DNA of 64,000 bases, taken from NCBI GenBank assembly GCA_965372795.1, contig CBDVDR010000016.1:1-64000 (forward strand). The letters are read 5' to 3'. Below the pieces are notes generated by a model, which saw only the letters and a list, made by a program, of their open reading frames with translations, was not told where the DNA came from and did no database searches. This document shows, in pieces, positions 38,734 to 64,000 of this stretch. The translations under genes were made by a program, and so were the position numbers. Source of the stretch: an uncultured bacterium (GTDB lineage: Bacteria > Zixibacteria > MSB-5A5 > GN15 > FEB-12). Position 1 is the stretch's first letter; every line of letters starts with the position of its first letter.

Positions 38734-38807
38734 GGGGTTGTAGTTCAGTTGGTTAGAACGCCTGCCTGTCACGCAGGAGGCCGCGAGTTCGAGTCTCGTC
38801 AACCCCG
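38734..38807 (+). tRNA. tRNA-Asp(GTC); integration site, CCA not encoded
   Basis: GGGGTTG/CAACCCC acceptor stem, CCTGC-CTGTCAC-GCAGG anticodon arm, GTTCGAGTC T-loop. Confidence 0.95.
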
Positions 38808-40271
38808 CTTAATTTTCAAATTGCCCCCTTCAGCAAATATGTTGAAGGGTTTTCTGTATGTAACACAAAGACTTCCATCATCAATTGTACAGTTCGAAAG
38901 TAAGTATTTGAGCAAGTGTCTTCGATCATCGTTTGATTGATGTAAGTACAAGTCATATGCTTGTTTTGCAAGTTCGATAATCTGGCTACCCATTTCGAGG
39001 TATTCATGATTTGCATGACGATGTTTGGAAATCTGTATTTCAATTTGGCGAAGCTCAGTATTCCACTCATAGGATTTTCTTTTCCAGAAATCTTCATCAA
39101 TTAAACCATTCAACCTATCTTCATATGCTTTCTCCTGATAGCCTCTGATACGATCGTAACGATTTTGTAAGGATTTTATAGATTTTCTTTGAAACTCTTC
39201 CTTGTCTGAGTGACTTTCACGAAGAGCAGCTTTCAACCCCTCAGCAGCTTTTGAAGATAGTGATATTCGCTTTACTACTTCACCAAATAATTCACTGAGC
39301 CTATTTTCTTTTACTGAGTTTTTACATTTACCTTTAAACTGAGTACATCGATAATATATATACTTACCTTTTTTGATATCAGGTGTCATAGAGCATCCAC
39401 ATCTATCGCATTTGACAAGTCCTCTAAAAGCAAAGTTTCGTTTTGTCATTTTTGGAGTTTTCCCACCATTCAAAACTTGTTGTACAGCATTGTAGAGTTC
39501 AACTGATATGATTGCTTCATGGATTCCGTTTTCATATAAAACATTCTTGTACTCAAAATACTTACCTGTATAGATTTGATTTTTGAGAATTCGATGAATT
39601 CCTGCTTTGTTGATTTTCTTTCCGTTCACAGACCTCAAGCCTAAATTATATGCGAACTCTTCCAAAAACTTGAGAGAATAGCGTCCGGTAGCATACTCTT
39701 CAAAAAGTCTTGCCACAAAAGGAGCTTTTTGAGAGTCTACATAAATCAAATGGTCTTGTAAATTTCTCATATATCCAATTGGAGATTTTGATGGCCACTG
39801 ACCAAGAGAAGCTTTTTTATTCATACCTTTCTTCACTTCTTCGGACAAATTGTCTATATAATTCTTTGCCATGAGAACCTTGATGCCATGTACAAACTTC
39901 GAATGAGATGAACTTTCACTTGAGATAATCCCACCTTCTTTGACAAGATGAACTATAGTATCCAAATCTTCAAGATCAACAAAATCTCTGAAGTTGCGAT
40001 AGAGTCGATCAGTTTTTTCAACCAAAATTGTTCGAACAAATGGATTAGCTTTTATAAAGTCGATCATCTGACCATATTGAGTTCGACCTACTGATTTTGC
40101 TGTCTCCTCATCAGTATATTCGTGCACAACCTCAAAACTATTCGTTAGTGCATAATCTCGTAACAAGTCGAGTTGTGCATCTATAGAAAATCCTTCCTCA
40201 GCCTGCCGCTCAGAGGAAACTCGTGCGTAAATAACTGCTTTCTTTTCTATTTGTTTCTGATATTTTTTCAT
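38799..40271 (-). CDS. Large serine recombinase (resolvase, recombinase and Zn-ribbon domains)
   Basis: YARVSS catalytic motif, DRLYRN, PIGY, CDRCG...YYRC...C, coiled coil; stop codon lies inside tRNA-Asp. Confidence 0.95.
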   Translation of the reverse strand: MKKYQKQIEKKAVIYARVSSERQAEEGFSIDAQLDLLRDYALTNSFEVVHEYTDEETAKSVGRTQYGQMIDFIKANPFVRTILVEKTDRLYRNFRDFVDLEDLDTIVHLVKEGGIISSESSSHSKFVHGIKVLMAKNYIDNLSEEVKKGMNKKASLGQWPSKSPIGYMRNLQDHLIYVDSQKAPFVARLFEEYATGRYSLKFLEEFAYNLGLRSVNGKKINKAGIHRILKNQIYTGKYFEYKNVLYENGIHEAIISVELYNAVQQVLNGGKTPKMTKRNFAFRGLVKCDRCGCSMTPDIKKGKYIYYRCTQFKGKCKNSVKENRLSELFGEVVKRISLSSKAAEGLKAALRESHSDKEEFQRKSIKSLQNRYDRIRGYQEKAYEDRLNGLIDEDFWKRKSYEWNTELRQIEIQISKHRHANHEYLEMGSQIIELAKQAYDLYLHQSNDDRRHLLKYLLSNCTIDDGSLCVTYRKPFNIFAEGGNLKIKRG

Positions 40272-40302
40272 GGATCATATTACCGATATTATCCGCTATA
40301 TG

Positions 40303-40518
40303 TCAACGGATATTTTTTTTGGTTCCTTTCTCTTTTTTCTTCCATTCATGTAAAGTTGTAAAAAAACCAGCAACGTTTGTGTTAATTTCATCGGTGCAGT
40401 CAACAGATATGTATTCTCTTGATAAAATACTCCAATGAAATCGGCTTGATCTCAAGTTCTGCTTCAAAGTAGATATTGAACTATCACTCAACCTATCTTT
40501 TGTTTGCTTTCGAGTCAT
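40303..40518 (-). CDS. Small hypothetical protein directly upstream of the recombinase (candidate directionality factor)
   Basis: AAGGAG RBS, overlaps the end of the Rep-like gene; function inferred from position only. Confidence 0.5.
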   Translation of the reverse strand: MTRKQTKDRLSDSSISTLKQNLRSSRFHWSILSREYISVDCTDEINTNVAGFFTTLHEWKKKEKGTKKNIR

Positions 40519-41683
40519 AGGAATTCTCCTTTCTTGAATTCAGCTTATTGTCTGAGATGAAATCTATATAAGACTGCAATAAGTTTTTGATATCCTGTGG
40601 AACTTGATATACACCTTTGTCAATACGAGTAACCAGCCCTTGATTGAGAAGTTTGGCAAGAAGGTACTTGGATGAGTTATTGGCTATCACTCTACCAGTC
40701 GTTGCAAGGAGAGATATCAACTTTATAAACTGTGGATGATTTTTACACGCACGACTCAGATTGTAGAGGATTTGCCCCTTATCTGACTGTCCCGCCAATG
40801 CGGATTGAGATTGCTCAAAAAATTTGAGTATATTTGTGATTGATCGCTGATACCAGCAATCGATAATATGGTCGAGAGTCACTATGGTGTTCGATCCAAT
40901 CACAGAGGTGCCAACAAGTTCTCGGATACGCCTACTGTTGAGTAGAGTTTCTACTCGCAAGGAGTCGACAAATTTCGGATAAATCATTATTCTCTCATTC
41001 TTCAACGGAAAAGCGGCAAGTCCATAGGAATTACGAGTTATTTTATCTCGTGGTAATAGTACTGTATAAGGCTTTGCTTCGTTATTTTTGAACATAGATT
41101 GAAAGAGCTTACGGTTTTTTTCAGTAAATAAGATCGCATCTTCTATGAACATATCCCAATAAAGTTCAAGATGTGTAATAGATATTGAGGGTTCTGTAAA
41201 GCTCAAATTATTTGAGGTTGAAGACTGCTTCATGATTTCAACGATAGATCCAAGTAAATCTTCGAGAGTATTGTGTAGTAACGACCTTGTTTCAGCTGCC
41301 AGAATCGCTCGATCATGAGTTGTGTATAAATCCTGAGGTAAAAAGTTATCATTATCATCCAATGATTCTAAAGTCAAGAAATTGAATGATTTATGCCTTA
41401 GTATACGAGTAGGATTGATTGTGACATCCATAAACAAGGTTACAGAGTTTGTGGTTCGATTGTGATAAAGTTTCATTTCTGCCAAAATTCGGTTTTGACG
41501 TCTTGTACGGAGTTTCAAGAAGGCATATTTCTGATAGCTATGTCTTATAGTGAAGAGATCGTTACCAAGATTTACAACAGTCCTTGCGAATTCATCTGAG
41601 TTCATCCCAGCAGCCGAAAAACCAGCGACTTTCATCTGTACCTTATCTATCATGACCATCTCGGATCTGAGAATATCAATCAT
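40493..41683 (-). CDS. Putative rolling-circle replication initiator/relaxase (Rep_trans or gpII/X-like) with C-terminal wHTH
   Basis: ITHLELYWD, MIYPK and LRVE resemble the RxD.xD / YxK / RxE motifs; LLNQGLVTRIDKGVY wHTH. Confidence 0.45.
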   Translation of the reverse strand: MIDILRSEMVMIDKVQMKVAGFSAAGMNSDEFARTVVNLGNDLFTIRHSYQKYAFLKLRTRRQNRILAEMKLYHNRTTNSVTLFMDVTINPTRILRHKSFNFLTLESLDDNDNFLPQDLYTTHDRAILAAETRSLLHNTLEDLLGSIVEIMKQSSTSNNLSFTEPSISITHLELYWDMFIEDAILFTEKNRKLFQSMFKNNEAKPYTVLLPRDKITRNSYGLAAFPLKNERIMIYPKFVDSLRVETLLNSRRIRELVGTSVIGSNTIVTLDHIIDCWYQRSITNILKFFEQSQSALAGQSDKGQILYNLSRACKNHPQFIKLISLLATTGRVIANNSSKYLLAKLLNQGLVTRIDKGVYQVPQDIKNLLQSYIDFISDNKLNSRKENSYDSKANKR

Positions 41684-42081
41684 GACAAGAATCTTTCAAT
41701 GTAAAATTTTTGACGTAAAATACATCTATAGTATAAAGGTGAGACCATTGACTTGTTGTTTAATGCGATTAGCATAATAGTTATAATTTGGCACAAAACA
41801 TTATCTCCTTATCCAACAAAATGTTACGAGATTCATCTTCTTCTCTTAATCTATTGTACAACTACCTAAGTTGACTATAAGTAGAGTTAGTTAGTAAGCA
41901 TGATATTTTTTTGTTATGCGATTTCAGTCAGGAGAATGGAGTTAAAAGGACGCATTATTTGCATAGCAAACCGCTCATGGACTTATTAAACAAGTGTCGG
42001 CTCGTCGCATCGGGTTGAGACAGAAACTGCCTCAGCGACCTTGCATTTGAATCTATCAATGCATCCATACAAGATTAACCT

Positions 42082-42118
42082 AATGATACTTATAGTCCGT
42101 AGACCTATAAGTATCATT
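42082..42118. promoter_or_regulatory. C-box-type operator (14-bp inverted repeat) upstream of the XRE controller gene
   Basis: AATGATACTTATAG-TCCGTAGAC-CTATAAGTATCATT. Confidence 0.75.
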
Positions 42119-42155
42119 GGATTATCCTACATATATCTTAATTGATTGGTAATAG

Positions 42156-42383
42156 ATGATGGATGATCCAAAGATAAAATTCGGAAAAATGGTAAGACAG
42201 AAACGACTTCAGTGGAATTATTCTCAAGAAGAACTTGCTCATCGTTGTGATCTCGACAGAACTTATATTGGTGGAGTTGAACGAGGAGAACGCAATATAA
42301 GCCTAATAAATATTTGTAAAATTGCCAAAGCTTTGAATACTACACCCAAAACCTTACTCGACTTCGGTAAAATCGAGTATTGA
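42156..42383 (+). CDS. XRE family HTH regulator, R-M controller (C protein)-like
   Basis: SQEELAHRCDLDRTYIGGVERGERNISLINI. Confidence 0.9.
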   Translation: MMDDPKIKFGKMVRQKRLQWNYSQEELAHRCDLDRTYIGGVERGERNISLINICKIAKALNTTPKTLLDFGKIEY

Positions 42384-42478
42384 ATTTAATTATTGTGTAT
42401 TTCGAAAAATTCCTTCAAAAGACCTCATAGATTTTTAATTAAATAAACCTATAGATTTATATTTTCCGCTTGTATGGA

Positions 42479-42498
42479 ATGTTGACTATAAGTATCAT
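42479..42498. promoter_or_regulatory. Second (single) C-box-like operator
   Basis: ATGTTGACTATAAGTATCAT shares CTATAAGTATCAT with the upstream operator. Confidence 0.6.
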
Positions 42499-42534
42499 AT
42501 TGTAAGCGCAAACTAATATATGAGGGTATAATCG

Positions 42535-43233
42535 ATGTTTTTAAAAGTACTTTTAATATCAATAATTTTATTGATTAATATTCCATTTTCTGGATATTCA
42601 CAGACAAAATTTATTGAAAATCGTAAAAAGTTAGAAATCGCAGTAAATGAAAACATATCTACACATTACTTATTCAAAAATTGTCAACTTCAGGATGATA
42701 ACAAATGGTTAAGTATTGAACTAAAATCAAAAACTTGGAAGAATCCTAATGACACAAAAGCTCTAATTGATTCTATCATAAAAATTACTAAAAACTTTGC
42801 ACCGTTTAGTGCTAATAAAAATTCGGAATTTCAAATTTATATTGATGAACCTAAAAGTGGATTCCCTATAGCAACTGTACGATCTTATTCTACAAAGACC
42901 TACTATGATTATTCATTTTCTGAGTGGCAAACGAAAGCTAAAGAAAAGTTATTCGGAATAAGGCAATCTACTCAGTATGTTTCAGAAGAAATAAAGTTTG
43001 GCAGGCCAATAATGTCAATGTGGTCTGGTGTTAAGCTATATTATGGATCTGGCTCATCAAAAAAGTTTGTTGGTAAAATAGTATGTTTTAGTGGTGATCT
43101 TGTTATGATCAAATATCCGTCTGGGTCTATAGAATCGAAATACAGAAGCGTAATTATAGACTTGAAAGGAAAGTGGTATATTGACAAGAATGATCCTGCT
43201 TTAAATGCGATGGAGTACTATACTTGTGACTAA
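42535..43233 (+). CDS. Secreted hypothetical protein
   Basis: Signal peptide; GAGGG RBS. Confidence 0.6.
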   Translation: MFLKVLLISIILLINIPFSGYSQTKFIENRKKLEIAVNENISTHYLFKNCQLQDDNKWLSIELKSKTWKNPNDTKALIDSIIKITKNFAPFSANKNSEFQIYIDEPKSGFPIATVRSYSTKTYYDYSFSEWQTKAKEKLFGIRQSTQYVSEEIKFGRPIMSMWSGVKLYYGSGSSKKFVGKIVCFSGDLVMIKYPSGSIESKYRSVIIDLKGKWYIDKNDPALNAMEYYTCD

Positions 43234-43391
43234 TAACACCAAATTGAGTTTGCCAATTATTATTTTTGAATTTTTTATCTTTTGCCCTTATAAATCGCCT
43301 CATATTTACTTAAACAAATGTGAAACTATCCACTTTACAAATCCTTTCTTACCGCTTATTTTTATGTAATTGTACCACAGGAGCTTACGTA

Positions 43392-44036
43392 ATGATCGAG
43401 TTGTTTCCGGTTGATAAAGTCAACCAAATGAGATGCAAATTGGAAACAGCCAGAGCTCCGGCAGGTGATACTCTTAAACAAAATGGATGGCACAAGAGTG
43501 ACCTGTCACCAAATGTATTACTGGAAACGCTTGAAAGTCTTTGGCTTAAAGAAGGATATACACTTCGAGGATACTTATATAAATCAGGTGAAAACGGAAA
43601 CGGCATTGTTTGGGCAATGCCAATCGACTCACCTTTTCCAGAACCTTCAGAGTGCACCAGTCTTACCGATCAGTTTCTTGAACCACCAAAACCAGAACAC
43701 GCTCTTGATGATTTCATGGAAGCAATTGATGGTGATCACACAGCTTGGTCATACATGTGTTCCTCAATCCTTGGCCGAGAATTACTTGAGTTCGGTGCAA
43801 GATGGCATGGCTGTGAATGGAGTTATGAAAGGATTGTATCTTTTAAGAAGTTATATAGAATATGTAGGTTAAAACCAATAACTGATAAATCTTTCATTTA
43901 TAATCCAATTGTAATTATAAATCAGATTGTAATTTGTTCTTTATTTACTATTCATGAGCAATATGGTTTTATTAAGGAGAACAGAGACATTTACCAGAAA
44001 GGGAATTATGAAAATAATAATAACGATCAAAAATAA
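43392..44036 (+). CDS. Hypothetical protein
   Basis: AGGAG RBS; GENGNG...ELLEFGARWHG segment. Confidence 0.6.
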   Translation: MIELFPVDKVNQMRCKLETARAPAGDTLKQNGWHKSDLSPNVLLETLESLWLKEGYTLRGYLYKSGENGNGIVWAMPIDSPFPEPSECTSLTDQFLEPPKPEHALDDFMEAIDGDHTAWSYMCSSILGRELLEFGARWHGCEWSYERIVSFKKLYRICRLKPITDKSFIYNPIVIINQIVICSLFTIHEQYGFIKENRDIYQKGNYENNNNDQK

Positions 44037-44065
44037 TAAAATTTGGGATAAATATTATACCTTAA

Positions 44066-44911
44066 TCAACTTACTCGAATAGTTATTTTTTTTGATTTCA
44101 TATTCCTCATAAAATTACTAATATGCCTTAAACCATCTATAAATGCATACCTACATTCTCTATAAGTTTTATGTGCATCTTTTTTCGATCTTGGAGCATG
44201 AACAGCTGGATTACCAAAATCACTTACAAAAGATTTCATCCCTCCAATAATAGCAGAAGTATCGCTAAACTGTCTGGCATCATTCATGTCATTCAAAATA
44301 TCCGCTAAATCTTTTGAAAGAGTTGAAGTAGTTAGCCAATCTTTTTTGATACTTGATTTAACAGCACTTTTGACCATTTCTTCAATAAGGATTCGGAGAT
44401 CACCTACACCTGAACGAGGATCATTTTGATATTTATCAAATGCATCAAGTACCCTTACTTTGACTTTACCTTTAATGTCCTTTGTTTTTTCGTTAAATTC
44501 CTTTCCTTTTATATGTTGAACTAAAGGTACAGTTGACTCTTGAAATTTCGCATCACCATTATCATCTACTATTATTATTCCATATCCATGAGATAATAAT
44601 TTCTTGAATTCTGCTTTATTTTTTTTATCGTTGTATAGCCCTTCAGTACATACACAATAAATTTCAATTGGTATAGTTACTTCTATGATATCAGCCAAAT
44701 ATAATTTAAAAACTGTTGGGTAAGGCATTTGAGATACTTCAGCAACTAAAATTCTTTTTCGAGTAGTTTCAAAATGTAAAGCAGGTGCCCAATCGATCTC
44801 ATGTGAGATCGGTTGCGATACTTTTGGTTGTGTTTGGAATCGCTCACTTAAAAATTTATGAGCAGAATTGAACAAAAAATCATCTCCAGATGATAAGCCC
44901 TTGTATGACAT
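44066..44911 (-). CDS. Hypothetical protein, restriction-endonuclease-like N-terminus and HEPN/DUF4145-like C-terminus
   Basis: LVAEVS, YGIIIVD segments; LIEE...GNPAVH; last gene of the MTase-ParB operon. Confidence 0.45.
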   Translation of the reverse strand: MSYKGLSSGDDFLFNSAHKFLSERFQTQPKVSQPISHEIDWAPALHFETTRKRILVAEVSQMPYPTVFKLYLADIIEVTIPIEIYCVCTEGLYNDKKNKAEFKKLLSHGYGIIIVDDNGDAKFQESTVPLVQHIKGKEFNEKTKDIKGKVKVRVLDAFDKYQNDPRSGVGDLRILIEEMVKSAVKSSIKKDWLTTSTLSKDLADILNDMNDARQFSDTSAIIGGMKSFVSDFGNPAVHAPRSKKDAHKTYRECRYAFIDGLRHISNFMRNMKSKKITIRVS

Positions 44912-45877
44912 TTACTTGCCCCCCAAAATTCTCTGGAGGAATTCTCTAAGATTATTTAATTTTTCAACAAATTCATCATCCAATTGAGAGACAAGATTCT
45001 CCTTCAACAAAATATCAAAATAAGCGTTTAAGTGATCAATTTGACTGATTGCCTTTTTTTCATCATAACCAAATTCTACTGTCCTTTCATACACCTCACG
45101 AATGCCTACTTCATTATTGGAATTGAACAAACTTTTCAAAGCAGATTCAGCTTGAGACTTTTTGATACCGATATTATCGATTGCAGTAGCAATTTTGGAT
45201 AATTGCCTAAAATCTGTAACAGCTCCAATTGTCCCTTCACGGTACTTGTCAATAAGCGTATTTCTTATTCCGTCAATATTGGATTCAAATTGAGGAAGTC
45301 TTTTGGTAATAGTCTTGAGAGACCGTTCCATTTCAAGAAAGAAATCCTCTGTAATTTTCTGACGAGATTTAGGAAGCTGCAATTCTTCCATCAACATTTG
45401 CTCAAACTGTGGAGGCATCTCCATAAGTAATTGGCATCTACGTATCTGCCCTCTTGTAAGACCAGTCTCTTTACTCAACTCTATCTCATTTGGTGGGTAC
45501 CCTTTTTCTTCTGTAAATAAATCAATAATTCGTCCTAAGTTTTTTGCAATTGTAAAGTAATCCCACTGTTCTCGAAGTGCGTGAATATTCGACATCAACA
45601 ATAAGTTTTCTAATTCTGAAGGACGATCCTGTATAATTGCTGGGATTTTATCAAGAGCAAGTTTTATTGAACATCGCCATCTTCTCTCTCCATCAATGAG
45701 AAAGTACTTGTCTTTATGTTCAAAAACTGAAATTGGAACTTGAATACCATGTTCAGAAATAGACACCATAAGGATCTCCATTTCTTCTTGACGAAAAACC
45801 ATTCTTGGATTTTCAGGGTTTGGCTGAATATCTTTAGGTGATATTTGCTTTAACCTTTTTATTTTTGTTTTATCCAT
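44912..45877 (-). CDS. ParB/Srx N-terminal domain protein
   Basis: PNPENPR, SISEHGIQVPI, LIDGERRWR. Confidence 0.85.
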   Translation of the reverse strand: MDKTKIKRLKQISPKDIQPNPENPRMVFRQEEMEILMVSISEHGIQVPISVFEHKDKYFLIDGERRWRCSIKLALDKIPAIIQDRPSELENLLLMSNIHALREQWDYFTIAKNLGRIIDLFTEEKGYPPNEIELSKETGLTRGQIRRCQLLMEMPPQFEQMLMEELQLPKSRQKITEDFFLEMERSLKTITKRLPQFESNIDGIRNTLIDKYREGTIGAVTDFRQLSKIATAIDNIGIKKSQAESALKSLFNSNNEVGIREVYERTVEFGYDEKKAISQIDHLNAYFDILLKENLVSQLDDEFVEKLNNLREFLQRILGGK

Positions 45878-47108: not shown

Positions 47109-47476
47109 TCAACCTCGCTACTCATTAAAATGGATAACTAACAACTTAATTTTATTAAAATACAAATGTAAAGGAGCTTTGTCAAGTCATCAAACCCCTC
47201 ATAACGATATAGTAATAAGCAACTTAAGATTAAGTTGAAGGATTGGATGAAAAACCTACTGAGTTATATTTATTCTGACTTATAAAACCACCTATAGAAT
47301 ATAACAATTTACAGAATCAGATCATGAAATTTTCAACTTTAAAAATAAACACAATTAAGATTTAAAAGGCAATTGCACAATACTACTTTTTACAATAATT
47401 ATTCTTACCTAATTAACATTTTATCTGAAATGTGAGATACTTTATTTTCTTTTTTTTAGGGATGCATATAGTATAA

Positions 47477-54420: not shown

Positions 54421-54671
54421 TTTTTATTTACTCTGCCAATCGGTGGGGTAATTTTTTTAGCATACAGTTGAGATCATATAATCAAGTCAATAAGAGGCTT
54501 TATAAAACCCACTTTAAAAATGGGGCACCCGGTTTAAAAGATGGACTAACTAATTTTGTTGATGTTCAATGATGAATTTCTAAAAACTGAGATAATATTT
54601 TTGATTTGAAATTTTTTTGCATAAAAGAAAATTTGAATGAAGATTTTGCTGAAAAGAGAACATTTGTAATC

Positions 54672-55613: not shown

Positions 55614-58259
55614 TTATCCTGTATTTCTCATTCCGGCGGCGATTCCTACAATAGTCAGTAACAAGGCGTGACGAAGGTCCGAATCTTTGGTCATTCGACT
55701 CATTCGATATCGTTTCAACGCTTCAACCTGTAGAATATTTAAAGTATCGGTATATGGATTCCGAACCGAAATTGATCGTTGTATTACCGGTGAGCCACTA
55801 AGCAGTTCATTCTGTCCAGTCAATTCCAACCAGCCTTTAGTGACCTCCAGCAAGTCTGTGCGAAGTTGTTTCCCAATGGGGTGCAGGACTTTTTCTGTTA
55901 GATTATTTTCATAATGTTCAGTTATATCCGGAAGTGTTTTAGCTAAAACCATCTCCTGCATCCCTACCATATTCCTGAAATATACCCAATCTTCGAGCAT
56001 CTCCTGTAATTGCTTTTTATCAAAAGTGTCATAATTAAAAATAACCTGGGTACCAAGCCAGGCTGGGAGCATCAGACGCACTTGAGTCCAGCCGAAAACC
56101 CACGGAATCGCTCGCAGGCTGTCGATATCTTTCCCCCGTTTTCGTTTTGCGGGACGACTTCCGATTGCAATCTCCTCCAGTTCAAGAATTGGTGTTGTTT
56201 GCGTAAAATAGTCAACAAATCGTTTCTCTTCCCTGACTACCTGCCGGTATTTAGCTGTTGATTTCTCAGCAAAGCTTTCCATCATTATCCGCCATGATTC
56301 TTTTGGTTTATCAGGTGGCAACAATCTTGCCTCCAGTGCTGCCGACAAGTAGACTTCGAGTGAACGCAATGCTACACCCTGTAATCCAAATTTATATCTG
56401 ATCACTTCTCCCTGCTCAGTCACACGAACTCCTCCTTGAACTGCTCCAGGCGGCTGTGAAAGCAGAGCCTGGTGTGCCGATGCTCCTCCCCGACTGATAG
56501 TTCCCCCTCTACCATGGAACAGGGTAAGCGGTATATCATGGTGAGAACAAACAGCAGTCAATGCTTCCTGTGCTTTATACTGCTCCCAGGAAGCCGCTAA
56601 AAATCCAGCATCTTTTGTAGAATCAGAATACCCAATCATTACTTCCTGTTTTGTAACGTTTTGTCGATACCAATCAATCCTTAACAGTTTATCAATTGTA
56701 TCTCCAGCTGAACGCAGGTCATCAAGAGTTTCAAATAACGGCACAACCCGTATCATTTTTTTTACTCTCGAAAGTTTTTGCAAAAAGTAAACCGCCAATA
56801 CATCAGAAGGCACTTTAGCCATAGAAATAACATAAGCCCCAAGCAAAGAAAAATCCTGCGATGCTATTAGACGAAAAGTTGAAAGTAATTCAATATCTTC
56901 CGAATCAGATGGAAATGATTTTGGCAACTTAATTTGTTCTGACTGAATTCCTTCTAACAAAAATTTCTGGCGTTCAATTTCTGTCATTGTATCAAACGGT
57001 TTCTTTCTACGAAGTTTAGTAAAGTTTGTTAGAAACTGAGTGTGTCGACCGGCATCCTGACGAATATCCAGTCGTAATAACGAATGACCAAAACAGGCCA
57101 ACTTTCGAAGTACATCTTTTAACTTACCATTGGCAATTGGTTTCATATTGGTTGCGATCAGCGACTGATAACAGAGTAAAAGCGGTTCTTTTAATGCTTC
57201 AAGGGTAATAATTGAAGGTTTAAATTTTTTCCGCCTGCCATCTAAGACTTCTTTAATTTGTTTTTGATCTTTATTAAGATTTTCCAATACAGATTTTAAA
57301 AGCGCCCGGTACGGCTCTCTGCTATTGCCTACCAGTTTACGAAGTTGGGAGGAACATGTGGTCATCGATAGTTCAGAACGGATCAGTTTCAGATCTTTTA
57401 TCAGCAATTCAGCAGCTTCCCACTGCCCCAACAAGAGAACTTCCTGGGTAACTTCAGCAGTAACATAAGGGTTACCGTCACGATCCCCACCCATCCAGGA
57501 TGAAAACCTAATTGGGCTAAAATCGACAGGGAGAGATTCACCTAATGACTCTTGTAAAATTAGATCGATATTTCGTAAAAAGAGTGGTACAGCCTCCCAC
57601 AATGTCTGCTCAACTACCGCAAATCCCCAACGGGCTTCCTCAACTGGAGTCGGTTTGGTTAATCGCAATTCATCAGTTTGCCATGCTGCCAATAGAATCC
57701 GGTGTAACGATTCCTCATTCCAATGACGTTCCGATTTAGTTAGGTCCTCCCTGTCAAGATTGCAAAGTTTTTCAGCAATAGCATTGTACTTCTGAATCAT
57801 TGTCCTACGCTGGGTTTCAGTTGGATGCGCAGTCAGGACAAAATCTATATTAGTATCCATCAGATAACGGATAATCCGCTTCTTTTCTATCCCCGCCTCA
57901 AGTAATCGCGGAAGTAATTCTTCCAATGAGCCTTTTTGAGGATGAGGTTCAGTCAATCGTTTGTATGAAAGACGGCGGCGTACCCGGTGTTGTTGTTCAG
58001 CTATATTGGCAAGATTTAAGAACTGGTTAAATGCTTTGGCAATTAACATTAGATTTTTATTATCAAGATTCTGAATAACTCCGATTAGTTGATTCCGAGC
58101 CTCTCTATCACCGGTTCTGGCATCTTGAGAGAGTTCACGTATTTCAGTAACTTTATCAAGAATTGGTTTACCTTCCAGTGAACTGATGACAGTACCGAGA
58201 ATATTTCCCAACATCCGAATGTTTTGGCGCAAGGGTTTGTGCGGATCGACAATACTCAT
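55614..58259 (-). CDS. ppc: Phosphoenolpyruvate carboxylase (cassette D-E)
   Basis: VLTAHPTE, WMGGDRDGNP, QEVMIGYSDS, FHGRGG, LRAIPWVF, MRNTG. Confidence 0.97.
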   Translation of the reverse strand: MSIVDPHKPLRQNIRMLGNILGTVISSLEGKPILDKVTEIRELSQDARTGDREARNQLIGVIQNLDNKNLMLIAKAFNQFLNLANIAEQQHRVRRRLSYKRLTEPHPQKGSLEELLPRLLEAGIEKKRIIRYLMDTNIDFVLTAHPTETQRRTMIQKYNAIAEKLCNLDREDLTKSERHWNEESLHRILLAAWQTDELRLTKPTPVEEARWGFAVVEQTLWEAVPLFLRNIDLILQESLGESLPVDFSPIRFSSWMGGDRDGNPYVTAEVTQEVLLLGQWEAAELLIKDLKLIRSELSMTTCSSQLRKLVGNSREPYRALLKSVLENLNKDQKQIKEVLDGRRKKFKPSIITLEALKEPLLLCYQSLIATNMKPIANGKLKDVLRKLACFGHSLLRLDIRQDAGRHTQFLTNFTKLRRKKPFDTMTEIERQKFLLEGIQSEQIKLPKSFPSDSEDIELLSTFRLIASQDFSLLGAYVISMAKVPSDVLAVYFLQKLSRVKKMIRVVPLFETLDDLRSAGDTIDKLLRIDWYRQNVTKQEVMIGYSDSTKDAGFLAASWEQYKAQEALTAVCSHHDIPLTLFHGRGGTISRGGASAHQALLSQPPGAVQGGVRVTEQGEVIRYKFGLQGVALRSLEVYLSAALEARLLPPDKPKESWRIMMESFAEKSTAKYRQVVREEKRFVDYFTQTTPILELEEIAIGSRPAKRKRGKDIDSLRAIPWVFGWTQVRLMLPAWLGTQVIFNYDTFDKKQLQEMLEDWVYFRNMVGMQEMVLAKTLPDITEHYENNLTEKVLHPIGKQLRTDLLEVTKGWLELTGQNELLSGSPVIQRSISVRNPYTDTLNILQVEALKRYRMSRMTKDSDLRHALLLTIVGIAAGMRNTG

Positions 58260-58445
58260 TTGTTATTCCTTAATTAGAGAATCAATTAACCGCAACTGTA
58301 TTTTCCTTCAAAGCTTCCTACAATAAGCGACAGTAAAAGAAAGAGATAAATGTGGTTTAAACAAGTTTCAAAAATAGGAGTAAGTTATAAAACTGTTTTC
58401 CTTAAAACTCAATTGATTGAAAGTGTATTTATTAATTTCTTGCTT

Positions 58446-58488
58446 CATACATCAAAAAGTTGCAAAAGTTGTCCAACGAATCCCGTCT
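58446..58488 (+). repeat. att-like site E
   Basis: CATACATCAAAAAGTTGCAAAAGTTGTCCAACGAATCCCGTCT. Confidence 0.85.
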
Positions 58489-58680
58489 TTTGTAATTGCC
58501 TGTGTAGCACTACGTTACAAGCTCTCACTATTTATTTATTCATAATTTATTTAGACTTCTTTGTGTTCCAATCATAGATGTTTTCCTTGTTATTGTTTGC
58601 TTTAAAGGTCTAAATAATCTATCTTGTAATTAGTTAATAAGTATTGAATGCTATTGAAAAGTTAATGAGGTAGTCGGCCT

Positions 58681-61323
58681 ATGGCGGCAAACGAATTTGA
58701 TGATGACCAAACAAGATCGTTTACTCTATTAGTCGCTGGTACCAAAGTCTCGCATTACACAATCATCTCCAAGATCGGTGCCGGTGGAATGGGTGAAGTC
58801 TATCTGGCAGAAGATTCTCAATTAGATCGTAAAGTTGCCTTAAAATTCCTCCCCCCTCATCTCTCTCAAAATAAAGCCAGTCGTGCTCGATTTGCACGTG
58901 AAGCAAAAGCTGCCGCCAAGCTTGATCATCCAAACATTGTCCCAGTTTACGAAGTTGGTGAATTTCAGGACAGACCGTACTTCGCTATGGCGCATATTGA
59001 GGGTCAATCTCTCAAGGAAGTTATCAGGGAAGGAAAGCTAACAGTACCCAATGCGGTTGAATACACCAAACAAATATGTGAAGGACTTTATAAGGCTCAT
59101 GAATCAAATGTTGTACATCGTGATATAAAACCTGCCAATATAATTATCGACAATGATAATAAACCTCGCATCCTTGATTTTGGATTGGCTACAGTTCAGG
59201 GTGAAGAAAAGCTGACCCAAACCGGTTCAACATTGGGTACGGTTGGCTACATGTCGCCTGAGCAGATCACCGGCAAGAGTGTTGATCATCGCTCTGATCT
59301 GTTTTCAGTTGGAGTGATTTTATATGAAATGCTCACCGGACGACGTCCTTTTGAGGGCGACAACGATGTTTCTATTCTCAATGCCATAACCAGTTCGACT
59401 CCGGAACCGGTGGCTCGTTTCAAGTCTGGCGTTACAGGAGAATTACAACAAATTGTAAACAAAGCCCTCGCAAAAGATTCTTCCGTTCGCTATCAGCATG
59501 CTGATGGGATGCTTGCTGACCTGAAGGGTCTTAGCATAGAGTCCAAGAGCCGGGTGAAGAGAAAGCTTCCCCTGTGGATAGCTGTAACAATTGTAGCTTT
59601 GGTTTTAGGATTTTTCGGTCTTTCTCAGATACTTGACGAGCGCACTTTCTCCTCGGGGCCAACCAGACTCGCCGTGCTACCTTTTGGGAATCTGGGTGAG
59701 AGAGATAAAGACTATTTTGCTACAGGGATGACCGACGAAATCATTAACAAGCTTATCTCAATCAGAGATTTGAAAGTGATTACAAGACAAAGTGCGGGAC
59801 GGATGAAACAGGAGGGGATGGACGTCAGCCAGATCGGTAAAGAACTAGGGGTTGACTATGTTCTGGATGCTTCGGTTCACTGGTTGAAAAGCAGCAATGG
59901 TGCCAAGCGTGTTAAACTGGTAACACGTTTAATTAAAGTATCTGACGGGTCTGTTCACTGGGGAAAATCATATGATACGACCATGACAGAGCTTTTTGAC
60001 ATTCAAGCGGATATGGCCACAAGGATTTCCGAGCAACTTGGGGTTGTGCTTACTCCTCAAGAGAAGATCATTGTCGCGGGAAGAACCACGAACAGCGACG
60101 AAGCCTGGGATTATTTTGTTCGAGGAGATAGTTATTATAATGAAGACCCATACTCTGAGAAATATCTTAACCTGGCTCTGGAAATGTATAATAAAGCTAT
60201 CGAGACAGATTCTGGTTTTGCCAAAGCCTATACGCAAAAATCGCGAATGTACACCCGATTATATTTCTACAACATCAATGTAACCGATTCCATTAAGTCG
60301 CTTTCTTGGGAAATGGCTAATAAGGCAATTGAAGTCTGCTCTGACCGCTCTTCTGATCACGAAGGTCACATGGCCCTTGCAAATTACTATTATCGTTGTG
60401 AAAGAGATTATGAGAGAGCCTTAGAATCGTTGGATAAGGCGTATGTAGGGATCGGCGGAAAGGATAACGCAGGATATCATCATTTTGCTTCTACTTACTT
60501 ACGTCGTATGGGAAGATGGAAGGAAGCCTACAAACATGGAGCAATCGCCGCCGAAATGGAACCGAAAAACTTCCACTTACACAATGAGCTTGGTGGCACA
60601 CTCATCTTGATGCGGAAATACAGAGAAGCGGAAAAGTCTTTTCGAAAGGCAATCGCGCTGAAACCTGATTATTTTGTGCCGTACGAAATGTTGACTGAGG
60701 TAAGTATCAGTTGGCAGGCTGATACCGAGAGGGCGCGGGAAATCATAGAATCTTCATGGCATAAAATTGAAGATACCGCTCGCTGGGGGGATTTCATGAT
60801 AACTCTTAACGGAATGGAAGGGGATTTTGAGGCCGTAAGAAACCATGCCAATTCATACTCGGATAAAGCATTGTTATATGATTGGCAGGATATTACAGAT
60901 TCTGCTGTAATTTATTGGGATTCAGCTCTGATTGAAAATCAAGAAGAATTAAAGGATAAAACGCTGACTCCCATCCAATGGGGTAGCCTTGGAAAATTGT
61001 ATGCTCGTATGGGAAACCGTAAAGAAGCAATAAATCATATTAATAAAGCATTGGAATTGATGCCTATGTCGAGGGATGCGCTTGACGGAACTGATCATCT
61101 GATTCAGCTTTTCTATTGTTATGTTTTCTTCGGCGAATTTGAAAATGCTAACAATCAAGCTGAGAAGATTCTTCAAGTCCCTGCCTATTTTGATATTGGA
61201 CAACTCTTATTGGATCCCGACACACGTAAATTTATCAAACATCCAGGCTTTGCGCGCTTGGTTAGTGAGTATGGCAATGAATATCATAAACGGCTTTATA
61301 TAGAAAAAGTCGGACAGTTGTAA
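58681..61323 (+). CDS. Hanks-type Ser/Thr protein kinase with TM, TolB-N-like and TPR domains (cassette E-F)
   Basis: GAGGMGEVY, VALK, HRDIKPAN, DFGLA, YMSPEQ; LAVLPF; TPRs. Confidence 0.92.
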   Translation: MAANEFDDDQTRSFTLLVAGTKVSHYTIISKIGAGGMGEVYLAEDSQLDRKVALKFLPPHLSQNKASRARFAREAKAAAKLDHPNIVPVYEVGEFQDRPYFAMAHIEGQSLKEVIREGKLTVPNAVEYTKQICEGLYKAHESNVVHRDIKPANIIIDNDNKPRILDFGLATVQGEEKLTQTGSTLGTVGYMSPEQITGKSVDHRSDLFSVGVILYEMLTGRRPFEGDNDVSILNAITSSTPEPVARFKSGVTGELQQIVNKALAKDSSVRYQHADGMLADLKGLSIESKSRVKRKLPLWIAVTIVALVLGFFGLSQILDERTFSSGPTRLAVLPFGNLGERDKDYFATGMTDEIINKLISIRDLKVITRQSAGRMKQEGMDVSQIGKELGVDYVLDASVHWLKSSNGAKRVKLVTRLIKVSDGSVHWGKSYDTTMTELFDIQADMATRISEQLGVVLTPQEKIIVAGRTTNSDEAWDYFVRGDSYYNEDPYSEKYLNLALEMYNKAIETDSGFAKAYTQKSRMYTRLYFYNINVTDSIKSLSWEMANKAIEVCSDRSSDHEGHMALANYYYRCERDYERALESLDKAYVGIGGKDNAGYHHFASTYLRRMGRWKEAYKHGAIAAEMEPKNFHLHNELGGTLILMRKYREAEKSFRKAIALKPDYFVPYEMLTEVSISWQADTERAREIIESSWHKIEDTARWGDFMITLNGMEGDFEAVRNHANSYSDKALLYDWQDITDSAVIYWDSALIENQEELKDKTLTPIQWGSLGKLYARMGNRKEAINHINKALELMPMSRDALDGTDHLIQLFYCYVFFGEFENANNQAEKILQVPAYFDIGQLLLDPDTRKFIKHPGFARLVSEYGNEYHKRLYIEKVGQL

Positions 61324-61354
61324 AAATTCCCTAAGATCAAGGTACGTCACTGAT

Positions 61355-61397
61355 CATACATCAAAAAGTTGCAAAAGTTGTCTAATGAATCCTGTCT
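61355..61397 (+). repeat. att-like site F
   Basis: CATACATCAAAAAGTTGCAAAAGTTGTCTAATGAATCCTGTCT. Confidence 0.85.
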
Positions 61398-61636
61398 TTG
61401 ACCTATATGCTTGACAATTGTTGAGCATTTTTTTGTAAATATACAAAGGCATAAACCGATTTGGCGACATTTTACCCCCATAATTTGTGTTTGTTTTTAT
61501 TGGCTATATTACTCATTTTATATATTGAGAATACGAAAAAACAAAATAGAAATATTTTAGCCTATGGTGACAAACAGTTTTGATGATGTTTCCAAAAATA
61601 TTTTAAATTTTTATTTTGAAAGTATGATCGTGAGAC

Positions 61637-63913
61637 ATGAATAAATTTTTACAAAAACAATTTGGTTTTCAACAGATTGAAATAAAAAAACTCAACGGCT
61701 ATGAGAATCAAAACTATCTGGTTAAAAGCGAACGCGGGAAATATGTTTTTAAAACATATCTCAAAAACAGAGAATTGTTAGCACTGATTGAAGCAGAGAA
61801 TGAAACACTTTTATTTTTGCAAAACAGTAAGAGTGAGAAATTCCCCAAACCAATTCAATTTACAGATGGCAGTCTGGTCAAAAATCTTAAAATAGACGGA
61901 AAAGAACGAATATGTAGAATGCTCTCTTTCCTTGATGGGCATTTATTAGGAGAAGTAACCCACACAAAAAGCTTATTTCAATCTTTGGGAGCCTTTCTGG
62001 CTCAATTGGATAAACAACTTCAATCGTTCAATAGCTATACCCTCAAGGCAAGACAATGGGAATGGGGTGTTCAATACTTTCATTGGAATAAAAAATACAT
62101 TAAGGATATCGCAAGTGCGAAGAACCGAAGCATGGTAAGCTATTTTTTTCAACAATTTGAAGAAAATGTTGTTCCTATACTTCCTGAGTTAAGAAAATCC
62201 ATTATTCACAATGATGCCAACGAATGGAATGTTTTGGTGAATGATGGAGAAGTATCGGGTATTATTGATTTTGGTGATTTGGGGTACTCTCCACTTATTA
62301 ATGAATTGGCAGTAGCTATTGCTTATTCCTGTTTCGACAAGGAAAATCCTTTGGAATGGGCATCTACCATTCTAAAATCATATCACCAAATATTGCCGAT
62401 TGAAGAAAATGAAATAACAGTTTTATACTACCTGATAGCGGCCAGACTATGCACAAGTGTATGTAATTCTGCCTATTCAAAAAAACAAAATCCTGATAAC
62501 AAATATGCCTTTGTAAGTGAAAAATCGGCTTGGGGAATGCTCTATCGTTGGCTAAGAATCAATCCGATAGCAGCTGAAAACAGTTTCCGCATAGCGATAG
62601 GGTTGCATACTTTTAATCCGAAGTCAACTGACAAAATGATAAAAGAAAGACATGATATAGCGAGTCCTGTACTTGCTTTGACTTATTCGAAGCCGATTTA
62701 TATGACCGGGGCAGCTTTTCAATATATGTTTGATGCCTACGGGAATACGTACTTAGACGCATACAATAATATTCCTCAGGTCGGTCATTCACACCCGAAA
62801 GTAGTAGCGGCCGGTCAGAAACAAATGGCTGCACTCAATACTAACACAAGGTATCTCTACGATCTTTTACCTGAGTATGCTAATAAGTTATTATCTAAAT
62901 TCCCTGACTCACTTAACAAAGTATTCTTTGTTAATTCCGGGAGTGCCGCATGTGATTTAGCAATTAGATTAGCCCAAGCGCATACCGGGCACAAAAACAT
63001 TATGGTAGTCGAACATGGTTATCACGGTCAAACTCAGACCGGAATAGATATCAGCGCCTATAAGTTTAGCAACCAAGCAGGCCAAAGGCAAAAAGACTAC
63101 GTCCTTAAGGCAACTATTCCCGACACTTACAGAGGGCAATATACTACCAATGATGGCAGTGCCGGAAAATTGTACGCTACTGATGCGATTGTACAGATTA
63201 ATAATTCAGACTCACCAATTGCGGCCTTTATCAGCGAACCTATAGTAGGTTGCGGCGGACAGGTTCCTTTAGCCAGAGGATATTTAAAAGAAATTTACCC
63301 GGAGATAAGAAAACAAGGCGGAGTTTGTATTAGCGATGAAGTTCAAACAGGATTCGGACGTTTGGGAGATTTGTTCTGGGGATTTGAGGCGCAAGAAGTT
63401 GTACCTGATATTGTAATTTTAGGAAAACCTATGGGCAATGGTCATCCTATGGGAGCGGTAATAACCACAACAGGAATAGTCGAATCATTTAGTAAAGGGG
63501 TTGAGTTTTTTAGTTCATTTGGCGGTAATCCGGTTTCGTGTGCGATTGGCTTATCTGTTTTAGAGGTGATTGAAGAAGAAAAGTTGCAGGAAAATGCGAG
63601 GATAGTGGGTGATTTCTATAAATCACTTTTTATTGAACTTCAAAAAGAGTTTCCTTGTATTGGTGATGTAAGAGGTTCCGGTTTATTTATTGGTGTGGAA
63701 TTGATAAAAAATGAAAATAACTCAGAACCAGATACTCATTTAGCCAATCATATTAAAAACGAACTTAGAAACCGAAATATACTCATCAGTACAGATGGTC
63801 CTTTTGATAGTGTTCTTAAAACTAAACCTCCGTTGTGTTTTACTAAGGAAAATGCTCAACAAGTAACAGACCAGATCTATGAAGTGTTAAAAACATATTA
63901 CTGCAAAAGATAA
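61637..63913 (+). CDS. Aminoglycoside/hydroxylysine kinase-like phosphotransferase fused to a class III PLP aminotransferase/phospho-lyase (cassette F-G)
   Basis: IHNDANEWN and IIDFGD kinase motifs; [25 protein letters not shown] motifs. Confidence 0.88.
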
Positions 63914-63980
63914 ATGTCATTAAAAACAAGCATTGATTAGTTTTATTCAGTCATAGTAGAACACCTGATATATTTTGGGA

Positions 63981-64000
63981 ATACATCAAAAAGTTGCGAA
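63981..64000 (+). repeat. att-like site G (truncated by the window end)
   Basis: ATACATCAAAAAGTTGCGAA, identical to the corresponding part of site D. Confidence 0.85.

Follow-up and report, generated by a model that had tools for sequence, protein, structure and literature searches.

We identified a large serine recombinase (LSR) gene that ends inside an oppositely oriented tRNA-Asp gene in a 64,000-nucleotide stretch of contig CBDVDR010000016.1 (hereafter the window) from an uncultured Zixibacteria bacterium. The gene probably belongs to a mobile element of ~10.8 kb inserted at the 3' end of tRNA-Asp, with a reading frame that crosses attP, so that insertion beside the tRNA clips the tail of the enzyme; most of the repeats B to G that lie further along would then be relics.

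The window enzyme is a large serine recombinase with three Pfam domains: Resolvase (PF00239, E 3e-20), which carries the catalytic serine, Recombinase (PF07508) and Zn_ribbon_recom (PF13408). R17-V18-S19-S20 is almost invariant among 52 aligned homologues, and the model of homologue P0023 has long helices (331-410) after the zinc ribbon that match the coiled-coil insert of LSRs. The features at this end of the element are:

38584..38657, plus strand: tRNA-Val(TAC), first of a tRNA-Val/tRNA-Asp pair (ARAGORN, Rfam)
38734..38808, plus strand: tRNA-Asp(GTC), its 3' part being the putative host (B) arm of attL (ARAGORN, Rfam)
38799..40271, minus strand: LSR of 490 aa, clipped prophage form (Pfam, translation)
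38826..38849, plus strand: terminator-like hairpin followed by a T run, directly 3' of tRNA-Asp (dG -15 kcal/mol, z -4.3)

The translated LSR ends in ...GGNLKIKRG, and TCA at 38799-38801, read in antisense to tRNA-Asp, supplies its TGA stop, just as an earlier note on this DNA had described. The final 10 nt of the ORF overlap the tRNA, and reading through the stop gives RDSNSRPPA and a second stop, again antisense of tRNA-Asp. The sequence ACCCCGC at 38802-38808 is the core common to tRNA and element. The hairpin sits within the last conserved codons of the LSR (KPFNIFAEGG) and is part of the element-side (P') arm. The final 18 nt of tRNA-Asp occur once only, with no second copy when up to three mismatches were allowed. 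Among 17 ORFs scanned with Pfam there is a single Resolvase domain and no small second serine recombinase (DsiA-type). No isolated phage carries a close relative of this LSR, the best match having 28.6% identity.

Seven repeats (A to G) follow on one strand. In the register of the LSR, set by the R codon of the core, they read on the minus strand as recombinase tails, G excepted:

49449..49598, minus strand: site A, P arm and 49-aa tail WRALRDDYHNWMSS..., the probable cognate attR
51211..51299, minus strand: site B, P arm and 27-aa orphan tail WRGSIDDLRNYLMYEIHKFMPKFQFSL, then a stop
53785..53861, minus strand: site C, P arm and 23-aa orphan tail LRGSLDDLPNYLQFEITQETIEL, then a stop, with R changed to P in the RNF block
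54337..54425, minus strand: site D, P arm and 27-aa orphan tail WRGSLDDLRNFLMYGTSNYVKQLQSFL, then a stop, the copy nearest to the order-wide consensus
58432..58493, minus strand: site E, decayed, core TCCCGT, RRDSLDNFCNFLMYEARN with a stop 4 codons past LMY
61347..61402, minus strand: site F, decayed, core TCCTGT, RQDSLDNFCNFLMYDQ with a stop 2 codons past LMY
63979..64000, minus strand: site G, truncated at the window end and reaching 64027 on the contig, out of register with its core

The tail readings themselves come from 51211-51294 in B, 53785-53856 in C, 54337-54420 in D, 58432-58488 in E and 61347-61397 in F. The CCCGC core and an open in-register tail are kept in A, B, C and D. In site G, 2 nt are deleted between RNFLMY block and core, and translation in the core register gives RVVRRSSQLFDVF...; the outermost junction, the one with native flank, is probably this site. 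The tail readings of the earlier note were reproduced exactly for A to F and not for G, where the deletion also overturns its statement that the core is free of indels. The B' arm after site A, read on the plus strand, consists of CCA, a T run and a terminator hairpin. The B'-type arm and terminator after site B are 91% identical to those after A, and the same terminator follows G. The tRNA downstream flank is present in three copies (after A, B and G), an observation that we count against our main reading. The proximal 15 nt of A to D match the tRNA at 11-12 positions, and their RNF codons spell a T-loop-like TCGCAAC. The host acceptor strand CAACCCC is absent from all of A to G; a crossover further 5' would have left it in them. 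When the window's own sites were compared at shifts of 0-8 for the attP/attB offset, expected to be 5 bp, no clear peak in match count appeared.

From these comparisons, we propose that the repeats are P-type half-sites of an attP that lies inside the LSR reading frame, and that each carries the ~20-50 terminal codons cut off from such a recombinase gene. Sequence comparison shows that in this family the last codons of the enzyme lie in the element-side P' arm, and that crossover falls in the few bases common to the element and the tRNA acceptor/CCA end. In the free form, the frame runs on into the P arm and encodes a C-terminal tail of about 25-50 residues. Insertion parts the P and P' arms and strands the tail at the far junction, and the clipped gene beside the tRNA ends in tRNA antisense, here at once, after RG. 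Site A, which is in register and has the tail type of homologue P0017, would be the far junction of the resident element, and B to G junctions of the same type from other mini-islands that have lost their recombinase and are stacked behind it. Each of these would consist of a P-type half-site and an orphan tail, several of them followed by a copy of the tRNA downstream flank with its terminator. The stack may have grown through repeated insertion, or through elements that took flanking DNA along; we know of no LSRs with repeated integration at one site. With crossover in the CCCGC/CCA-acceptor core, the host would keep the tRNA-derived stop and the frame of the excised element would stay open into the tail, so that excision between the tRNA junction and site A would give a 537-aa enzyme (488 + 49). 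The tail of the free form may modulate activity or stability, so that the gene would 'know' its integration state.

Comparison with homologues shows that ending in a tRNA is a trait of this family, which is large (6143 matches among 7999 scored candidates) and spread over many phyla. Among 80 genomic homologues, at least 57 have their 3' end within a tRNA on the opposite strand, with 11 tRNA kinds used. Another 7 run off their contig, and several of the 15 classed as having no tRNA simply read through one. The same holds for 39 of 80 metagenome loci. The genome studied here has three further genes of this kind, at tRNA-Ser(TGA), tRNA-Ser(GCT) and tRNA-Asn. The element at tRNA-Asn, on a second contig (C7), has a clean attL/attR pair whose two halves lie in a single genome: the gene on the tRNA side ends in ..TKLP/RQDSNLRPAD and a stop, and a site at a distance of 19.2 kb gives KLP/QLDEFRNFLMYSNNVITSISF and a stop, in register. 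This pair and the prophage form of the window gene, which ends after RG in tRNA antisense, support the proposal of the earlier note that integration truncates the enzyme.

Fifteen IMG/VR loci (L101, 102, 103, 105, 106, 110, 112, 114, 116, 118, 122, 123, 126, 128 and 131) have the free form, with no tRNA at the gene end and a longer tail. In the phage free forms the frame continues for 30-35 codons, and in L106, a phage genome, the genes downstream of the recombinase include lysis and tail genes. The tails of these unintegrated phage homologues are under purifying selection: five of the six informative pairs give dN/dS values of 0.09-0.25 and the sixth gives 0.46 (a seventh is undefined), at dS up to 1.06, as compared with 0.02-0.23 for the gene body in the same pair comparison. 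Thirteen of the 15 tails end in Ala, mostly as -AA, -VA, -IA or -CA. Phage and prophage siblings share their sequence as far as the CCA/acceptor end and diverge exactly there; together with the lack of CAACCCC in A to G, this favors the suggestion that crossover within CCCGC would fuse the window LSR to a tail. A phage group at tRNA-Leu carries a 5-nt insertion in the P arm relative to the tRNA arm, between the proximal and distal shared motifs, which fits the attP/attB model for the Listeria A118/LI integrase, as described in part of Rutherford et al. 2013 (PMC3783163).

Tails of the window's own types are found in frame in 4 of the 120 best homologues: RGWLYEFRNFL... on P0009 and P0023, RAFVYEFRIYL on P0029, and WRALRDEF..., the type of site A, on P0017. 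Genome G086 adds an in-frame gene remnant with a tail, so that homologues with such tails, which the earlier note had proposed to look for, do exist. Homologues of the tRNA-Asn enzyme have related tails (LDAFRTFL, VDDFRTFL and others).

The DNA between the LSR and site A, and between the sites, encodes diverse cargo:

40493..48945, strand not specified: resident-element cargo, namely a 396-aa protein without assignment, ParB_N, a D12 adenine methyltransferase, radical-SAM, PqqD-like and other proteins
49835..63913, strand not specified: cassettes between the sites (Pfam)

The cassettes carry a HI0933-type flavoprotein, two proteins without assignment, a 109-aa membrane protein, a nitroreductase with a PEP carboxylase, a Ser/Thr kinase-TPR protein and an APH-aminotransferase fusion. 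They are accessory genes, the PEP carboxylase being present in 2 of 41 related genomes. The most fitting reading of the array A to G is a stack of mini-islands that have no recombinase and carry such genes. This organization is not restricted to the window. Arrays of 3-4 sites also occur in G054, G086, G145 and G042, and recombinase-less arrays are found in other genomes, for example in G042 behind an identical tRNA-Asp. A 20-mer core of the repeat gave 6 forward matches in this genome, with 0 in reverse and 0 for a reversed-pattern control. In 160 genomes of the order there were 57 matches versus 8 for the control, with 38 genomes positive, and in 125 further genomes of the phylum there were 8 matches in 7 genomes, about the control level. 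The residue before the core in the other genomes is K (P' side, like the LSR end) in 19 of 46 sites and W (CCA and flank) in 8 of 46.

The 46 unique copies from the order indicate how far the orphan tails are constrained as protein. Mean entropy at codon positions 1, 2 and 3 is 0.76, 0.54 and 0.73; the periodicity is not significant (p=0.39 for a higher value at position 3, p=0.12 for a lower one at position 2), leaving the assertion that differences between copies are mostly synonymous or conservative without statistical support. At least 8 open codons follow LMY in 40 of the 46 sites, E or D stands after LMY in 30, and a stop 8-17 codons past LMY occurs in 33 in register as compared with 10 and 9 in the other two frames. 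The conserved block itself is stop-free in the other frames too (46 and 44 of 46). Orphan tails have a pN/pS of 0.73, versus 0.85 and 1.02 for control frames; coding constraint on them across the order is weak.

We considered several other explanations. The conserved block overlaps the DNA that an LSR would contact, which counts against our main reading because constraint at the DNA level alone could explain much of the conservation. The repeats might thus be DNA sites only, with half-sites that mimic the T-loop and acceptor end of the tRNA and a peptide that is a by-product, functionless in any form. The match of A to D to the tRNA, the lack of significant codon periodicity and the low fold confidence of the tail (pLDDT ~40 in the AlphaFold model of a tailed homologue) are consistent with this. 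Nevertheless, we consider it improbable: conservation extends ~40 nt from the core as compared with the 24-26 bp half-site of the solved attP given in the relevant part of PMC3783163, stops cluster 9 and 13-14 codons past the block in otherwise diverged DNA, the phage-form tails evolve like the gene body, and one peptide motif is shared by two subfamilies whose N-terminal 320 residues have 28% identity and whose remaining parts cannot be aligned. Alternatively, A to G may be a working menu, as the earlier note proposed: the LSR could excise with any of them, and the site used would decide which functional C-terminus it gains, adjusting its direction or stability. Across the order, the tails keep their length and an acidic residue past LMY, A to D retain core and open tail, and the same idea was raised for DsiB beside the fragment of another island (McMurdie et al. 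2011, PMC3146451, in the part consulted). The altered cores and short tails of E and F, the register of G, the weak constraint on orphan tails and the persistence of arrays in genomes without a recombinase nearby make a menu very unlikely. The same decay and weak constraint fit best with the fallback of that note, in which the tails simply record the ancestry of the sites.

The one- and two-gene units may instead be integron-like mobile circles that the LSR takes up and releases in trans, rather than remains of larger islands. They measure 0.56-4.1 kb, mostly hold a single gene with a same-strand site at its 3' end, contain no mobility-gene remnants by Pfam and carry accessory cargo, and 3-4-site arrays recur in the four genomes named above. 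We regard this as doubtful, because no cassette circle or reshuffling between genomes was seen among the genomes compared, the right arms of the sites are of B' or P' type, as those of island junctions should be, some sites retain a gene remnant, and known LSRs pair attP solely with attB (PMC3783163, as far as the part consulted goes). A true integron was rejected, as the sole recombinase among the 17 ORFs is a serine enzyme (no IntI) and the sites resemble tRNA ends with recombinase-gene tails.

Excision by LSRs needs a separate directionality factor, and to our knowledge these factors share no common family. We speculate that the tailed free form integrates and is short-lived, with the clipped form stable and inert or excision-biased; that the gene in this way signals whether it is integrated, with or without a separate directionality factor; and that spare tails restore function when excision uses a neighbor's site, moving several mini-islands together. 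We regard these three proposals, taken jointly, as unlikely to hold.

The closest precedents for a recombinase frame that crosses attP are the Dehalococcoides ssrA islands and phage Mx8, which we compare here from portions of the respective papers. In the former, a serine recombinase of ~540 aa (DsiB), encoded on the reverse strand, lies by attL and in every case overlaps it at the 3' end, its stop lies only outside the island, and tandem islands, some without an integration module, follow one small-RNA gene (PMC3146451). ParB-domain and methylase-type genes near the recombinase likewise resemble the ParB_N and D12 methyltransferase of the window. The authors suggested that the enzyme may reach full length only in the circular form or where a neighboring island holds the 3' fragment, and judged the overlap unlikely to encode function, whereas free-form tails of the window family are under selection. 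The Dehalococcoides target is tmRNA (ssrA), the repeats are 20-bp copies of the target end rather than an arm of the element with a shared core of 5-8 nt, and the six-gene module includes the small second serine recombinase DsiA, which is lacking from our 17 ORFs. The window element, which targets tRNA-Asp and has neither 20-bp repeats nor a DsiA-type gene, was not assigned to that island type.

In Mx8, attP lies within the integrase gene, and integration gives that gene a new 3' end, turning IntP into IntX, an enzyme with changed properties (PMC6070905); that enzyme is a tyrosine recombinase with a larger exchanged part and an effect shown by experiment, whereas the window case is known from sequence. 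BPs-type mycobacteriophages have attP inside the repressor frame, so that integration removes a C-terminal extension with a degradation tag, and their integrase also has a C-terminal proteolysis signal (PMC4557955, in part). There it is the repressor gene that is split, and here the recombinase itself; a degradation role for the Ala-ended tails is a guess from their end residues. The comparison of the earlier note with the SSV1 integrase is a loose one, since the SSV1 gene is both split and disabled; Mx8 and DsiB are closer. The A118/LI integrase has the same three domains, but in the part of the account consulted (PMC3783163) the frames of enzymes of that type do not span attP, and their targets are mostly protein genes. 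In Prochlorococcus, tRNA-side islands of tycheposons grow as newcomers push older elements outward, with partial target copies and imported flanking DNA accounting for most of the island; 910 of 937 use tyrosine recombinases, and tail-splitting is no part of the account in the text seen (bioRxiv 10.1101/2020.12.28.424599).

Serine integrases are prized as genome-engineering tools because they are one-way, and control of their direction is still being worked out. The window alone adds modestly, since its layout was already in print for Dehalococcoides in 2011 (PMC3146451, in part). The very large, almost unstudied branch to which it belongs, which rewrites its own C-terminus upon integration, offers a new place to seek control of direction and stability. 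This family targets the universal tRNA end and appears to build stacks of small accessory-gene units, and those found here, with a PEP carboxylase, a protein kinase and an aminotransferase fusion, bear on gene gain in little-studied environmental bacteria.

We examined the large serine recombinase (LSR) gene beside tRNA-Asp(GTC) and the same-strand att-like repeats, sites A to G, that lie downstream, in an assembly of 3.35 Mb and 69 contigs, of which contig C16, positions 1-64000, is the window.

Recombinase junction and att-like sites (tRNAs from tRNA and Rfam calls, sites from a repeat search; at every site the repeat is on the + strand and the tail reads on the - strand)
38584-38657, + strand: tRNA-Val
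38734-38808, + strand: tRNA-Asp(GTC)
38799-40271, - strand: LSR of 490 aa with Resolvase, Recombinase and Zn_ribbon_recom domains
about 49568-49607, + strand: site A
51251-51299, + strand: site B
about 53810-53861, + strand: site C
54377-54425, + strand: site D
58445-58493, + strand: site E
61354-61402, + strand: site F
63979-64027, + strand: site G, which crosses the window end at 64000

Translation agrees with the earlier note that the recombinase ends in KIKRG on a stop lent by the tRNA: the C-terminus is ...GGNLKIKRG, and the TGA that follows is complementary to 38799-38801 and thereby lies ten bases within tRNA-Asp. Past this stop the frame spells RDSNSRPPA and a further stop, which is tRNA-Asp antisense. 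Read in register with the recombinase, sites A to F give exactly the tails that the note had listed, that of site A comprising 49 residues in register with the R codon of the LSR, but site G has lost 2 nt between its conserved block and its core, which shifts the reading and yields a differing peptide. Directly 3' of tRNA-Asp, a strong hairpin and T run resembling a terminator (38826-38849, + strand) fall within the codons of the last conserved motif of the LSR, KPFNIFAEGG. The element apparently supplies a substitute terminator for the tRNA operon, antisense within its own LSR gene.

The repeats are not plain copies of the tRNA 3' end, as the last 18 nt of tRNA-Asp occur only once at up to three mismatches. 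What the tRNA and the sites have in common is ACCCCGC-type cores of 5-8 nt only; in the 15 nt beyond the core, 11-12 positions agree with the tRNA in sites A-D. A curated RNA element is also ruled out, since a search of 38000-64000 against known RNA families returned nothing beyond tRNA-Val and tRNA-Asp. Nor are the tails independent small genes, given that they have no in-frame start and that the two solitary repeat copies elsewhere in the genome, on contigs C7 and C8, are both intergenic. The C8 copy (15457-15505, - strand) lies just downstream of a gene on a contig without a tRNA; its core differs and is tRNA-like (..CCAACTCCA), and its tail is short, WVDNLRNYFIVNRKF and a stop.

Phage/prophage alignments, selection on the tails and loci that end at tRNAs together place attP of this LSR family within the recombinase gene, and integration swaps the native tail for tRNA-antisense residues. 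Comparison of sequences gives good support to the earlier proposal of a recombinase clipped by integration, with the sites as its tails. The family is very large: of 7999 candidates scored, 6143 were hits at E<=0.001, and the best 120 were examined. At 15 IMG/VR loci the LSR gene is internal, has no tRNA at its end and encodes a longer C-terminus. One of these (L106) is a phage genome, in which genes for recombination and replication lie upstream of the LSR gene and those for endolysin, tail chaperone and tail fibre lie downstream. It also carries a reverse transcriptase beside the tail-fibre genes (14184-15476, - strand), which is suggestive of a diversity-generating retroelement. DNA alignments in three groups (targets tRNA-Asp, tRNA-Leu and one other tRNA) show that phage forms and their integrated siblings are identical up to the antisense of the tRNA CCA and first acceptor bases, and then differ.

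The tails of the phage forms evolve under purifying selection. Five pairs have a tail dN/dS of 0.09-0.25 and a sixth has 0.46, with dS up to 1.06, and dN is zero in a seventh pair; values for the gene body are 0.02-0.23. In the phage branch, the last residue is Ala in 13 of the 15 free-form tails (mostly -AA, -VA, -IA or -CA), which resemble C-terminal degradation tags, whereas window-type tails have hydrophobic end residues and give no hint of such a tag. The exact repeat 20-mer had no matches in IMG/VR, so window-type elements are absent from those viral contigs. Among isolated phages there was no close relative of the window LSR (best 28.6% identity).

Integrated members show the complementary arrangement. 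In at least 57 of 80 loci from species-representative genomes, the ORF terminates within or at a tRNA of the other strand (Asp, Gln, Asn, Arg, Ile, Val, Glu, Ala, His, Ser or Leu); a further 7 ORFs leave the contig, and of 15 scored as lacking a tRNA, several read through a whole tRNA. The same strict test is passed by 39 of 80 metagenome loci. The genome studied here encodes three further LSR genes that end in tRNA antisense, on contigs C10, C4 and C7. Two belong to the window family and adjoin tRNA-Ser genes: C10:64719-66237 at tRNA-Ser(TGA), with 46% identity, and C4:23600-25129 at tRNA-Ser(GCT), with 38%. The far ends of these two elements were not found, a search for repeats of the tRNA-Ser ends giving no match.

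The third, a 514-aa LSR, belongs to an element at tRNA-Asn that spans about 19.2 kb (C7:33900-53145, loci L288 and L289). This tRNA terminates ...GGGGGAGC, and the neighbouring LSR ends ...TKLP followed by RQDSNLRPAD and a stop. At the site 19.2 kb away the core GGGGGAGC is identical, and KLP is followed in register by QLDEFRNFLMYSNNVITSISF and a stop. The two ends form a clean attL/attR pair, with gene and tail in the same register. Its LSR has 28% identity to that of the window over the first 320 residues and is unalignable beyond, and its homologues bear tails such as LDAFRTFL and VDDFRTFL.

Whether homologues ever bear tails of the window kinds was a point raised by the earlier note, and we found them in frame after RG or WR codons on 4 of the best 120 homologues. 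The tail reads RGWLYEFRNFL... in P0009 and P0023, RAFVYEFRIYL... in P0029 and WRALRDEFLKSM..., the site A type, in P0017. A metagenome scan did not recover the contig of P0017, the top match being 48% identical. In the genome G086, from the same order, a recombinase remnant (residues ~383-488) continues in frame into such a tail, and in G001, from the same genus, a frameshifted remnant adjoins a D-like site.

Detached copies of the repeat occur across the order, where the 20-mer had 57 hits (reversed control, 8) and 38 of 160 genomes were positive; the 125 genomes of the phylum outside the order showed no enrichment. We gathered 46 unique copies from the order for in-register analysis. Their consensus is RG[S/W/Q]L[D/Y][D/E][L/F]RNFLMY, the block is open in 41 of the 46, and the residue after LMY is E or D in 30. 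Past the block the DNA has diverged, yet at least 8 further codons are open in 40 of 46 copies, compared with ~53% expected from base composition. A stop follows at 8-17 codons past the block in 33 of 46, with peaks at codons 9 and 13-14, as against 10/46 and 9/46 in the two remaining frames.

These copies also bear on the position of the crossover. The codon before the core, in the tail frame, is K at 19 of 46 sites (CCCCGC-TT..., like the LSR end) and W at 8 of 46 (CCCCGC-CA and a terminator), and the tail side is unchanged in both. Taken with the divergence point between phage and prophage and the strands of the sites, this K/W switch leads us to infer that the exchange would occur within the shared CCCGC. 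The three comparative lines agree with the earlier placement in CCCGC rather than 5' of the TCA. The TCA sits in CAACCCC, which pairs with the 5' strand of the tRNA, GGGGTTG. The far-junction counterparts of CAACCCC are AGAGCCC at A, GAACCCC at B and C, GAGCCCC at D, GAATCCC at E and GAATCCT at F; the lack of the host CAACCCC at sites A-F argues against a crossover further 5'.

The idea that the spare sites provide alternative tails on demand is not supported. As a rule, these tails are probably not in service, because E and F are decayed, G is out of register, and the coding signal in the orphan copies is weak. Specifically, the cores of sites E and F are altered, their RNF block has C in place of R, and their tails stop 4 and 2 codons past LMY. 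Among pooled alignable pairs, pN/pS of the orphan tails is 0.73 in register and 0.85 and 1.02 in the other frames, as expected for decaying relics. The entropy of the conserved block by codon position (0.76/0.54/0.73) is not significant, and its stop-free status fails to single out the tail frame.

The conserved block overlaps the expected contact zone of the enzyme, and at the DNA level its RNF codons are a T-loop-like TCGCAAC. As the block would be both contact zone and coding sequence, DNA- and protein-level constraints are confounded there, and the case for translation rests on the distal part of the tails, the tailed full-length proteins and the phage branch. Compared with the tRNA arm, the P arm (the tail-coding side of attP) in the tRNA-Leu group of phages contains 5 inserted nt, an offset of the type predicted by the attP/attB model (PMC3783163). 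On the window's own sites, match counts by shift gave no clear peak for a 5-bp offset. An AlphaFold model of P0023 is confident for the body (mean pLDDT 86), and the tail helix, at pLDDT ~40, is uninformative on docking.

The layout of the window is already in print as a kind. Tandem islands behind ssrA have been described in Dehalococcoides by McMurdie et al. (2011), who suggest that the enzyme may need to be on the circle, or next to an island with the 3' fragment, to work fully (PMC3146451). In Mx8, attP lies in a tyrosine integrase gene, and integration creates a new 3' end with altered properties (PMC6070905). In mycobacteriophage BPs, integration strips a degradation tag from the repressor, and the integrase has a C-terminal proteolysis signal (PMC4557955). 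Beyond the papers cited here, literature listings and abstracts gave no description of serine recombinases that target tRNAs and have split tails or cassette arrays. The value of the present analysis lies in its family-wide evidence for selected free-form tails and crossover at the tRNA end, in a tail motif common to subfamilies and in arrays found order-wide.

The array is probably a stack of recombinase-less mini-islands, with site A as the far junction of a resident 10.8-kb element whose cargo comprises genes of ParB-like, adenine methylase, radical-SAM and PqqD types. At 44912-48945 (- strand), ParB_N overlaps a D12 adenine methyltransferase, followed by the radical-SAM enzyme and its PqqD-like partner, a peptide-maturation pair. 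Genes between the sites look ordinary yet are accessory; they encode an HI0933 flavoprotein, two unknowns, a small membrane protein, a nitroreductase and a PEP carboxylase, a Ser/Thr kinase-TPR protein and an APH-aminotransferase fusion. The PEP carboxylase (55614-58259, - strand) is full-length and, although a central-metabolism gene, behaves as accessory cargo; with this query it was found in 2 of 41 related genomes including its own, the other being G012 (70% identity). Same-strand arrays of 2-4 sites occur in five genomes of the order (G054, G086, G145, G085 and G042). That of G042 lies 3' of a tRNA-Asp identical in all 75 nt and its last site has CCA and a terminator; there is no recombinase within the 20 kb fetched. 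The surroundings of tRNA-Val/Asp in 8 relatives had no genes in common with the window contig on either side, one kinase hit and one unrelated hit being the only matches, and no empty site was seen among them. A 17-kb query matched G001 at a D-like site and a few short stretches only, and the DNA of the units between the sites is not shared with that same-genus genome.

Sites A, B and G are followed by near-identical flank copies, each comprising CCA or CTA, then a T run and then a strong hairpin terminator, which look like the native flank of the tRNA operon; sites D and F have different hairpins downstream. Simple LSR integration would be insufficient to produce multiple copies of the host flank, and we conjecture that excision with a remoter site might carry the flank along. 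Gene capture of that kind has been proposed for tRNA-anchored Prochlorococcus islands (bioRxiv 10.1101/2020.12.28.424599). Two short repeats were also noted within the array. A stretch of ~40 nt in the B-C unit (51487-51531) matches three G001 contigs at 88-97% identity and is an unrelated short repeat. A 29-nt stretch at the kinase start codon (58677-58705) recurs, at 83%, upstream of the aminotransferase-fusion gene (61560-61588).
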